Assembly: GCF_050920415.1 (NCBI RefSeq) | Contig: NZ_CP169309.1 | DNA length: 64,000 bases | Source: Escherichia coli | Lineage (GTDB): Bacteria; Pseudomonadota; Gammaproteobacteria; Enterobacterales; Enterobacteriaceae | Direction: 5' to 3' (one strand) | Shown here: positions 3,929 through 52,864 of the stretch, piece by piece | How the letters are laid out: the number at the start of each line of letters is the position of its first letter | Numbering within the stretch: the first letter of the stretch is position 1 | The notes under the pieces: generated by a model | The model's database searches: none | What the model saw: only the letters and a program-made list of their open reading frames with translations | Told to the model about the DNA's origin: nothing | Translations under genes and position numbers: made by a program

Positions 3929-4100
3929 GGTCAGTGCGTATTTGCAGCGCGACGTTATCAAAGGTGATCATCGTCGATTTACAAAAAATACACTTTGCCC
4001 CTAAAGGATTTCGCTCCGTCACATCGAATGCCGATGTGCGGTACTGTGAACCATGACAACATGGACAGCGGAAATGGAGATGTTGAGTAATAACGGCAAC
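3903..4100 (-). CDS. Small zinc-ribbon-like protein (two CxxC pairs), start uncertain
   Basis: ORF 3903..4163 encodes HFRCPCCHGSQY...KCIFCKS; the listed Met lies inside cspG, so the true start is probably downstream and non-ATG. Confidence 0.3.
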   Translation of the reverse strand, partial: VAVITQHLHFRCPCCHGSQYRTSAFDVTERNPLGAKCIFCKSTMITFDNVALQIRTDHAPLDFTK

Positions 4101-4101
4101 C

Positions 4102-4314
4102 TTAGAGCGTAACAACGTTCGCTGCCGCGGGACCACGTTGCCCCTGCTCAATAGAAAATTCAACTTTCTGATTTTCGTTCAGCGTGCGGAATTCATTGCT
4201 CTGGATGGCGGTGAAATGGACGAAAACGTCTTTGCTGCCATCATCAGGAGTGATAAAGCCAAAACCTTTATCTGCGTTAAACCATTTTACTAAACCAGTC
4301 ATTTTATTAGACAT
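4102..4314 (-). CDS. cspG: Cold shock protein CspG
   Basis: 70-aa [37 protein letters not shown]... with RNP1/RNP2 cold-shock-domain motifs. Confidence 0.92.
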
Positions 4315-4599
4315 ATTTTACTTCCTTCATTTTGGGCCTTTCGGCAAACAGGGCTTTAATACAGAAACTACTTAGTGTTCAGGAGAGAGACTCAAAAGAA
4401 GGGGATAATGCCTGATAATGAGAACTGCTTTAGTAAACTACTTTGTATGCTGTCTGTCTTTCAAACCGACGCAGCTATTAACGCATGATAATTGAGATTA
4501 AGCAATTTTTATTTTAGCCGTCCGGCGGTCTTAAATATCGCTGGCTTTATTTTATTAACCCCGTATAGTGCAGCGCAGTATTTTCAGTAAGGAATTTGT

Positions 4600-23291: not shown

Positions 23292-23379
23292 GGAAGTGTG
23301 GCCGAGCGGTTGAAGGCACCGGTCTTGAAAACCGGCGACCCGAAAGGGTTCCAGAGTTCGAATCTCTGCGCTTCCGCCA
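23292..23379 (+). tRNA. serT: tRNA-Ser (anticodon UGA)
   Basis: 88-nt GGAAGTGTGGCCGAGCGG...TTCGAATCTCTGCGCTTCCGCCA; anticodon loop CTTGAAA; long variable arm; encoded CCA. Confidence 0.92.
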
Positions 23380-23387
23380 AATAAGAT

Positions 23388-23421
23388 AAGGGGTTACCAA
23401 ATGGTAACCCCTTAGTTTTTT
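23388..23421 (+). terminator. Intrinsic terminator after serT (islet-side variant)
   Basis: Palindrome AAGGGGTTACCA/TGGTAACCCCTT followed by T-run. Confidence 0.6.
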
Positions 23422-36735: not shown

Positions 36736-37245
36736 ATGTACACTTCAGGCTATGCACATCGTTCTTCGTCGTTCTCATCCGCAGCAAGTAAAATTGCGCG
36801 TGTCTCTACGGAAAACACTACAGCCGGGCTTATCAGTGAAGTTGTCTATCGCGAAGATCAGCCCATGATGACGCAACTTCTACTGTTGCCATTGTTACAG
36901 CAACTCGGTCAGCAATCGCGCTGGCAACTCTGGTTAACACCGCAACAAAAACTGAGTCGGGAATGGGTACAGGCATCTGGGCTACCCTTAACGAAAGTGA
37001 TGCAGATTAGCCAGCTCTCCCCTTGCCACACTGTGGAGTCAATGGTTCGCGCTTTACGCACGGGCAATTACAGTGTGGTGATCGGTTGGTTGGCAGATGA
37101 TTTGACTGAAGAAGAGCATGCTGAACTTGTTGATGCGGCAAATGAAGGTAACGCTATGGGGTTTATTATGCGTCCGGTAAGCGCATCCTCTCACGCAACG
37201 AGACAACTTTCCGGGCTAAAAATTCACTCTAATTTGTATCATTAA
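36736..37245 (+). CDS. sulA: SulA, SOS cell-division inhibitor
   Basis: 169 aa [38 protein letters not shown]... Confidence 0.93.
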
Positions 37246-37601
37246 GTAAATTTAGGAGTAATCCTGGAACTTTTTTTGTCGCCCAGCCAATGCTTTCAGT
37301 CGTGACTAATATTCCTTGCGAAGTCTTGTCTGAAGCGGTTTCCGCGATTTTCCTCTGTAAATTGCCGCTGACAAAAAAGATTAAACATACCTTATACAAG
37401 ACTTTTTTTTCATATGCCTGACGGAGTTCACACTTGTAAGTTTTCAACTACGTTGTAGACTTTACATCGCCAGGGGTGCTCGGCATAAGCCGAAGATATC
37501 GGTAGAGTTAATATTGAGCAGATCCCCCGGTGAAGGATTTAACCGTGTTATCTCGTTGGAGATATTCATGGCGTATTTTGGATGATAACGAGGCGCAAAA
37601 A

Positions 37602-38654
37602 ATGAAAAAGACAGCTATCGCGATTGCAGTGGCACTGGCTGGTTTCGCTACCGTAGCGCAGGCCGCTCCGAAAGATAACACCTGGTACACTGGTGCTAAA
37701 CTGGGCTGGTCCCAGTACCATGACACTGGTTTCATCAACAACAATGGTCCGACCCACGAAAACCAACTGGGTGCAGGTGCTTTTGGTGGTTACCAGGTTA
37801 ACCCGTATGTTGGCTTTGAAATGGGTTACGACTGGTTAGGTCGTATGCCGTACAAAGGCGACAACATCAATGGCGCATATAAAGCTCAGGGCGTTCAACT
37901 GACCGCCAAACTGGGTTACCCAATCACTGACGATCTGGACATCTACACTCGTCTGGGTGGTATGGTATGGCGTGCAGACACCAAGGCTAACGTACCTGGT
38001 GGCGCATCCTTTAAAGACCACGATACCGGTGTTTCTCCGGTCTTCGCTGGCGGTGTTGAGTACGCGATCACTCCTGAAATCGCTACCCGTCTGGAATACC
38101 AGTGGACCAACAACATCGGTGACGCACACACCATCGGTACTCGTCCGGACAACGGCCTGCTGAGCCTGGGTGTTTCCTACCGTTTCGGTCAGGGCGAAGC
38201 AGCTCCAGTAGTTGCTCCGGCACCAGCTCCGGCACCGGAAGTACAGACCAAGCACTTCACTCTGAAGTCTGACGTTCTGTTCAACTTCAACAAAGCAACC
38301 CTGAAACCGGAAGGTCAGGCTGCTCTGGATCAGCTGTACAGCCAGCTGAGCAACCTGGATCCGAAAGATGGTTCCGTAGTTGTTCTGGGTTACACTGACC
38401 GCATCGGTTCTGACGCTTACAACCAGGGTCTGTCCGAGCGTCGTGCTCAGTCCGTTGTTGATTACCTGATCTCCAAAGGTATCCCGGCAGACAAAATCTC
38501 TGCACGTGGTATGGGTGAATCCAACCCGGTTACTGGCAACACCTGTGACAACGTGAAACAGCGTGCTGCGCTGATCGACTGCCTGGCTCCGGATCGTCGC
38601 GTAGAGATCGAAGTTAAAGGCATCAAAGACGTTGTAACTCAGCCGCAGGCTTAA
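37602..38654 (+). CDS. ompA: Outer membrane protein A (variant surface-loop allele)
   Basis: [21 protein letters not shown] signal, beta-barrel, [13 protein letters not shown] hinge, C-terminal OmpA-like domain; preceded by long 5' UTR. Confidence 0.93.
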
Positions 38655-38670
38655 GTTATCGTCTGATAGA

Positions 38671-38698
38671 AAAACCCCGCAGCTGCGGGGTTTTTTTT
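38671..38698 (+). terminator. ompA intrinsic terminator
   Basis: AAAAACCCCGCAGCTGCGGGGTTTTTTTT. Confidence 0.85.
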
Positions 38699-51743: not shown

Positions 51744-52754
51744 TTAGATATGGTTAACGATTTCTTTAATCAGCGGCGGTCCTTTAAAAATAAAACCAGA
51801 ATAAATTTGCACCAGTGAGGCCCCCGCAGCAATCTTTTCACGCGCAGCGATAACCGAGTCAATGCCGCCAACACCGATGATCGGTAAGCGACCGTTTAAT
51901 TCCTGAGACAAACGGCGAATAATTTCGGTGCTTTTTAACTGTAGCGGACGACCACTTAAGCCCCCAGTTTGATCGCAATTTTTCATACCCTGTACCAAAG
52001 AACGATCGAGCGTGGTATTGGTTGCAATAACGCCATCAATATTATGGCGAACTAAACTATCGGCAACCTGGATCAATTCTTCTTCAGAAAGATCCGGCGC
52101 GATCTTCACTGCGATCGGCACATATTTATGGTGCATCGCTTGCAAATCATTTTGCTTATTTTTAATCGCGGTTAAGAGATCATCCAGCGCTTCGCCATAT
52201 TGCAGTGTGCGTAGTCCTGGGGTATTCGGCGATGAAATATTGATGGCGATATATCCCGCATAAGCATAGATTTTTTCCATACAAATCAGATAGTCATCTT
52301 TACCCTGCTCCACCGGCGTATCTTTATTTTTGCCGATGTTAATACCCAGGACGCCATCATAATGGGCTTTTTTTACGTTCTCTACGAGGTTATCAACGCC
52401 AAGATTATTAAAGCCCATACGGTTGATCAAACCTTCGGCATCTACCAGACGAAAGAGACGCGGCTTGTCATTACCTGGCTGTGGACGTGGCGTGACGGTA
52501 CCGATCTCGATAGATCCAAACCCCATCGCGCCTAACGCGTCAATGCACTCCCCGTCTTTATCAAGACCGGCTGCCAGACCAAGCGGATTTTTAAACGTCA
52601 GGCCCATGCAGTTAACAGGTTTCGCAGGCACTTTCTGCCGCACCAGTGCTTCAAACGGCGTTCCTGTAATACGGCGTAATTGCTGAAAAGTAAACTCATG
52701 AGCGCGCTCTGGATCGAGCTGGAAAAGGGCTTTACGAACGAAGGGGTAGTACAT
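51744..52754 (-). CDS. pyrD: Dihydroorotate dehydrogenase (quinone)
   Basis: 336 aa [21 protein letters not shown]...; start at internal Met. Confidence 0.93.
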
Positions 52755-52864
52755 GAACTCTCCTGGATTCCCGGTGTGCAAACCGGGGGCGTATTATGTG
52801 CGAGTTCGGACCAAAAGGGAATTGACCTGCGGCAAAAAAAACGCAAACGTTTTCAGAACCTGTT

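Follow-up and report, generated by a model that had tools for sequence, protein, structure and literature searches.

An Escherichia coli ompA allele of the 'OmpA-long' (ompA2-like) type with a K-12-type loop 1

The ompA gene and its product

The sequence considered here, which we call the window, is a stretch of 64,000 nucleotides of E. coli DNA, and it carries the gene for the porin OmpA on its forward strand. Across the 24 kb that were compared, the window is 100% identical to record NZ_CP169399.1 (strain MFDS1022581, approximately 3,130,702-3,194,701), a strain from animal-source food in South Korea, and the RefSeq annotation of that record gives the ompA product as 'porin OmpA', WP_000750415.1. 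The gene and the parts of its product are as follows, with the boundaries of the loop peptides (61 residues in four loops) as defined in PMC13108393.

37602..38654, + strand: ompA CDS, 350 codons plus stop (open reading frame and translation; the protein is WP_000750415.1, 'porin OmpA')
37602..37664, + strand: signal peptide of 21 aa, the same as in K-12 (translation)
37668..38198, + strand: N-terminal eight-stranded beta-barrel (Pfam PF01389 OmpA_membrane, residues 23-199, E = 1.2e-79)
37707..37763, + strand: loop 1 region, of K-12 type (N25, FINNNG) and not with the P25 of common long alleles
37839..37886, + strand: loop 2 region, with DNI at 37860-37868 in place of the K-12 SVE
37983..38018, + strand: loop 3 ('loop 3b') of 12 aa, the K-12 KSNVYGKN plus four residues, with the extra 12 nt at about 38000-38011
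38106..38159, + strand: loop 4 region, with H149 as in K-12 and L161 (38157-38159) replacing M
38202..38237, + strand: proline-rich hinge of 12 aa, the same as in K-12 (translation)
38277..38564, + strand: C-terminal periplasmic peptidoglycan-binding OmpA domain (Pfam PF00691, residues 226-321)

The reading frame is intact on translation of 37602..38654, and the gene begins with the ATG at 37602, a start that yields a canonical signal peptide and agrees with RefSeq. The GTG at 37530 was rejected as a start, being a mechanical upstream extension produced by the ORF listing, and the other ORFs that overlap ompA within 37508-38505, including antisense ones, were disregarded as products of the same mechanical listing.

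The initial annotation had assigned the barrel and the C-terminal domain to OmpA, and the family searches agree: besides the two Pfam domains, the whole protein (residues 1-350) matches the NCBIfam equivalog NF008071 'porin OmpA' with 676.1 bits against a cut-off of 277. The amino acids of the periplasmic domain equal those of K-12 and are of the alpha type (A175, N203, and G251). The gene order sxy-sulA-ompA-matP-ycbZ is conserved in the window, K-12, EC958, PBP5, 504211, D9, and ATCC 11775, and the orthologous position of ompA, between sulA and matP, is confirmed in the window.

Differences from K-12 OmpA

As the K-12 reference we used MG1655 OmpA (NC_000913, b0957), and both the protein and the DNA were aligned. 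The initial annotation had described a surface-loop variant relative to K-12, with two differing segments within 37840-38120; the alignment bears this out, the two loops concerned not being identical to those of K-12, and both segments are found inside that interval.

In loop 2, the K-12 stretch KGSVENGAYK corresponds to window positions 37854-37883, and SVE has been replaced by DNI (S87D, V88N, and E89I in precursor numbering; residues 66-68 of the mature protein). In loop 3, K-12 TKSNVYGKNHDTG corresponds to a 17-residue segment of the window encoded at 37980-38030, with S129A and Y132P in precursor numbering (mature S108A and Y111P), mature N114D, and an insertion of the four residues GASF encoded by the additional 12 nt; the earlier estimate of about four extra residues is therefore exactly right. 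What had been missed is a third difference, M161L in mature numbering, at the foot of loop 4. The remaining OmpA residues all equal those of K-12 in the protein alignment.

At the DNA level, 40 nucleotide substitutions and the 12-nt indel separate the gene from that of K-12. All seven amino acid substitutions, together with the insertion, fall within the 61 loop residues, and none is found among the other 264 mature residues (Fisher p = 6e-6). The 264 non-loop codons do carry 18 synonymous differences from K-12, and the contrast between replacement and synonymous differences has p = 0.0015. The clustering of differences in the loops is not due to chance, and the restriction of replacements to these regions could reflect either relaxed constraint or diversifying selection.

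Flanking regulatory DNA

Upstream of the ompA start, every base of the window from 37400 to 37601 equals K-12 in the alignment. Positions 37469..37601 (+ strand) are presumably the 5' untranslated leader, if one applies the 133-nt length of the K-12 ompA leader. Strain 2013C-4282 has an ompA that is 100% identical to the one in the window, yet it shows eight differences in the window kilobase 37000-37999; given the identity of the gene, these must lie upstream of 37602, that is, in the 3' end of sulA or in the sulA-ompA spacer.

Downstream, direct reading of the DNA between ompA and the convergent matP gives one feature.

38675..38698, + strand: GC-rich palindrome CCCCGCAGCTGCGGGG followed by T8

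We read this palindrome with its run of T8 as the putative ompA terminator; a single central base distinguishes the palindrome from that of K-12. A consensus scan for promoters and terminators returned chance-level matches only and missed the palindrome at 38675..38698, because the hairpin is without a loop of three or more bases. An Rfam scan placed no RNA family within or adjoining ompA.

Other features of the window

A degraded integrative element or prophage remnant of about 2.65 kb is inserted at serT (tRNA-Ser, UGA), in window positions 23292-26070. It contains an Ail/Lom fragment, a hypothetical gene, STnc100, tRNA-Gly(tcc), tRNA-Arg(tct), and an integrase fragment. The element is absent from the same site in K-12, 2013C-4282, and 100117, where the tRNA adjoins yccA directly. 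Its landmarks, along with two expected features detected by Rfam, are listed below.

23292-23379: intact tRNA-Ser serT
23325-23421 and 25974-26070: 97-nt direct repeat, 85% identical, which duplicates the 3' part of the tRNA
24284-24476: STnc100 sRNA match inside the serT element (Rfam)
4048-4470, - strand: cspA thermoregulator, upstream of cspG (Rfam)
52749-52822, - strand: PyrD leader (Rfam)

Between 26000 and 50000, divergence from the closest other genomes varies in patches: there are zero to three differences in some 1-kb blocks, but 20-45 differences from 2013C-4282, N96, and 100117 in those at 26-27, 28-29, 32-33, and 44-48 kb. Besides the window's own genome, no complete genome is more than 98.8% identical over these 24 kb (26-50 kb). 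Such block-wise divergence is typical of recombination mosaicism.

Frequency of the allele

The frequency of the allele was assessed in 5,426 complete E. coli genomes, all but one of which possess ompA. When the 281-nt segment spanning loops 2 and 3 is used for comparison, 2,124 of the 5,426 records reach 95% identity or more at equal length (the long type), 3,210 match at 80-90% with a match 12 nt shorter (the K-12 type), and 92 are intermediate. The long type is thus found in approximately 39% of the complete genomes, including the ST131 strain EC958. That such allelic variation is well known in E. coli, as the initial annotation had remarked, agrees both with this figure and with the published ompA2, or 'OmpA-long', class.

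The exact DNA allele is rare among complete genomes. Over the whole gene, an identity of 99% or more is reached by 14 of the 5,426 records, counting that of the window itself, and 100% identity is restricted to three genomes, namely MFDS1022581 (the window's own), 2013C-4282, and WL297. The other records at or above 99% include a set of human stool isolates (one of them, strain 100117, from the Gambia), one bovine isolate, and one canine isolate. In a collection of 15 billion proteins, at least 1,000 contigs encode exactly this protein, which is described there as 'porin OmpA [Escherichia coli]' (UniRef A0A0L7AK12).

Five ompA-like matches in the genome collection sit on plasmids. One of them, at 635-978 of the 4,668-bp plasmid NZ_CP097216.1 of strain BE311, is an 89.9% match to ompA codons ~66-184 and is annotated as 'outer membrane beta-barrel protein'.

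Placement among published allele classes

Several naming schemes for OmpA loop variants are in use. Liao et al. 2017 (PMC5413513) sequenced ompA from 78 environmental isolates and tabulated their loop patterns: pattern I (N, SVE, SNVYGKN, H), which is that of K-12, accounted for 33%, pattern II for 20.5%, and pattern III for 14%. In Liao et al. 2022 (PMC9560509), the ompA1 of Power et al. is equated with patterns I, IV, and VII, and ompA2 with patterns II and III; Power 2006, as cited in that paper, reported ompA2 isolates to be less sensitive to phage lysis. A 2025 study (PMC12259851) named the classes OmpA-short and OmpA-long, recorded 179 loop combinations across 85,680 genomes, solved crystal structures for both isoforms, and described the strictly isoform-specific nanobodies Nb01 and Nb39, which touch all four loops. 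A 2026 paper (PMC13108393) used loop 3a (KSNVYGKN) and loop 3b peptides for the titration of anti-OmpA IgG.

The window allele has the long loop 3 that characterizes OmpA-long in PMC12259851 and corresponds to loop 3b in PMC13108393. Its barrel is identical to PDB 9FZD at 172 of 174 aligned residues, the exceptions being P25N and M161L. Its loops 2 and 3 are those of the ompA2 patterns II and III, with ompA2 defined according to PMC9560509, but P25 is absent. The window allele is not filed as Liao pattern II or III, because residue 25 is N instead of P. At residues 25, 66-68, 108-114, and 149, as well as at A175, N203, and G251, it matches instead an unnamed pattern: Table 3A of PMC5413513 lists this four-loop combination, with an alpha C-terminus, in isolates 110 and 307.

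The gene in the window is, we are confident, the chromosomal ompA of an ordinary E. coli, present as a natural 'OmpA-long' (ompA2-like) allele. The class is known, and the exact four-loop combination is rare yet already in print. The main value of the comparison lies in the correct annotation of the gene, as OmpA-long with a K-12-type loop 1, and it raises no new question.

Recombination within ompA

Site-by-site comparison of twelve E. coli ompA alleles shows that 506 site pairs fail the four-gamete test, with Rm = 12. The gene is reticulate and recombines often in the population, and individual strains display the outcome. In FDAARGOS_497 (positions 882-1922 of the locus compared), DNI is paired with a short, K-12-type loop 3, which makes this a shuffled allele with respect to these two loops; according to Supplementary Fig. 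8 of PMC12259851, the same pairing is among the variants that the nanobodies do not detect. A change of another kind is seen in D9 (NZ_CP010152.1; positions 1222-2268 of the locus compared), whose K-12-type ompA has 6 nt duplicated in frame, so that the beginning of loop 2 reads MPYPYKG and OmpA has 348 aa.

One might therefore suspect that the window allele is itself a recent intragenic recombinant, in which a K-12-type loop 1 has been joined to a loop 2/3 cassette from a common pattern II or III allele. The pervasive recombination of ompA and the existence of recombinants such as FDAARGOS_497 speak for this reading, as does the fact that the window equals K-12 at gene sites 132-138 and the long alleles at sites 147 to 174. 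However, long alleles with D25 (042 and N96) also possess an N/D-type loop 1, flanked by those same synonymous sites, so this loop 1 is not confined to alleles of the K-12 type. PMC5413513 reports no combination of P25 with SVE, and the three loop 1/loop 2 combinations that are left can be explained without recombination.

The window allele also possesses approximately 10 private synonymous states spread across the gene (gene sites 270, 279, 306, 423, 429, 621, 768, 900, 915, and 969). These include T423 and T429, which adjoin loop 3, and they occur in no pattern II or III allele of the 5,426 genomes. These sites give the allele the look of an old, separate lineage and not of a fresh chimera.

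The closest relatives, 2017-02-2CC and N96, share a window-like backbone and have an 042-like loop 3 (SNVPGGASTKD). Of the 10 differences between the window and 2017-02-2CC, seven are concentrated in the 90 nt surrounding loop 3 (p about 2e-4), a cluster that fits an import of the 042-like loop 3 into 2017-02-2CC and N96 and is better explained in that way than by recombination in the window allele. On balance, we regard a recent recombinant origin as unlikely.

Functional meaning

T-even-like phages use the OmpA loops as receptors, and the literature names the loops as colicin targets too; they are also targeted by natural and vaccine-induced antibodies and by diagnostic nanobodies. The initial annotation had accordingly called the allelic variation biologically meaningful, and this view is upheld. 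Since the loops are phage and antibody targets, knowledge of the allele helps to predict phage host range and the coverage of antibodies and nanobodies. In the phage tests of PMC12032242 (2025), eight natural ompA alleles were swapped into MG1655: one group of Gp38 adhesins can use every allele, and type 2 needs particular loop 2/3 variants.

The window allele is altered on the extracellular face only; its barrel strands, its signals for expression, and its cell-wall anchor are those of K-12. Barrel folding, regulation, and cell-wall anchoring should stay unaltered. Judging from the literature, loops 2 and 3 would be the surfaces that phage adhesins, antibodies, and nanobodies contact, and a cell with the window allele would display the 'long' epitope and receptor surface. 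Because the loops are touched by these binders, the allele should change recognition by phages, antibodies, and nanobodies. It would be expected to escape binders specific for K-12-type loops, such as Nb01 and the type 2 Gp38 phages that need a K-12-type loop 2/3, and binders of the long form would be expected to recognize it.

The opposing view is that the differences are neutral drift in unconstrained loop residues, with no effect on phage or immune recognition. Loops do tolerate change, and in PMC5413513 patterns I and II, the two commonest, which differ in all four loops, showed no significant difference in attachment to corn stover among the isolates. We nevertheless consider neutrality improbable. 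The isoform-specific nanobodies of PMC12259851 separate short from long completely, and the type 2 Gp38 phages of PMC12032242 infect certain loop 2/3 combinations only, even though the alleles were swapped in one background. Within the gene itself, three adjacent loop 2 codons are changed at eight of nine nucleotides, the 12-nt length difference has been kept in frame, and both allele classes persist, at about 40% and 60%.

A more speculative proposal, in which we place little confidence, goes beyond the expected change of recognition shared with other long alleles. The combination of N25, DNI, long loop 3, H149, and L161 might confer a distinct receptor or antigen specificity, or might represent the near-ancestral source of the K-12-type short allele. 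A distinct specificity might mean escape from binders that contact P25, for example, Nb39 or some Gp38 adhesins. If the proposal holds, the rare lineage would be a useful natural intermediate for mapping the loop determinants of phage and antibody recognition. In the supplement of PMC12259851, the text of which is partly garbled, the N25-long variant does not appear among the five commonest undetected variants as far as these are legible.

Ancestry of the loop states

Salmonella enterica ompA has the same nine DNI nucleotides and the same following AAT codon as the window; its loop 3 is as long as that of the long form, and residue 161 is L. Because of the DNI codons and the long-length loop 3 in Salmonella, and on the basis of a few Salmonella sequences out of one 90% cluster, DNI with a long loop 3 is probably the ancestral-like condition, and the SVE of K-12, with its loop 3 shorter by 12 nt, is probably derived.

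The same likeness might be taken to indicate that the loop 2-3 segment was recently acquired from another species, for example, Salmonella or Shigella. This is very improbable. Whole-gene identity to Salmonella ompA is 90.4% for the window and 90.5% for K-12, all E. coli alleles falling between 90.3% and 91.4%, so the window stands no closer to Salmonella than the other E. coli alleles do. The loop 3 DNA of the window differs from that of Salmonella at many positions, and the Salmonella loop 3 sequences are unlike it (e.g., SNTLGGESTKN or SNVPGGPSTKD). Salmonella differs further in having approximately 9.6% nucleotide divergence and several substitutions in the barrel and C-terminal domain, and the flanks and the remainder of the window ompA are typical of E. 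coli. Import from another species, like recent recombination within E. coli, is thus an unlikely source of the allele.

A sequencing or assembly artefact, or a pseudogene, can be dismissed: the frame is intact, three complete genomes that were sequenced independently share the same DNA, 14 records (the window's own genome included) are at least 99% identical, and the exact protein is on at least 1,000 contigs.

Comparison with known OmpA forms

The laboratory form with which the natural OmpA-long allele of the window is compared is K-12 OmpA (P0A910; Liao pattern I, alpha; 'OmpA-short'; PDB 1BXW, 1QJP, and 9FZC). The two share the signal peptide, barrel strands, loop 1, H149, hinge, periplasmic domain, 5' leader, and genomic context. 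They are distinguished by DNI versus SVE in loop 2, by the four residues added to KSNVYGKN in loop 3, and by L161 versus M161.

The reference for OmpA-long is that of the clinical strain CS#11, crystallized with Nb39 (PDB 9FZD), which is of Liao pattern III and is exemplified by EC958 and CFT073. Loops 2 and 3 and H149 are the same in the window, in keeping with the 172 of 174 barrel residues noted earlier, whereas N25 and L161 of the window stand against P25 and M161 of the reference. As for EC958 in particular, residues 203 and 251 are T and A there but N and G (alpha) in the window, and the two genes are separated by 26 nucleotide substitutions.

Liao pattern II with an alpha C-terminus is the ompA2 of Power 2006 (bird isolate B194), found, for example, in 504211 and in the O15:H12 strain 2273-PO3. 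It agrees with the window in loops 2-3, at residue 161, and in the alpha C-terminal domain, and is unlike it in having P25 where the window has N25 and N149 where the window has H149; 504211 additionally has V93.

The unnamed Liao pattern of isolates 110 and 307 agrees with the window in all four loop states and in the alpha type, a match that holds for the tabulated residues, which do not cover 93, 129, and 161.
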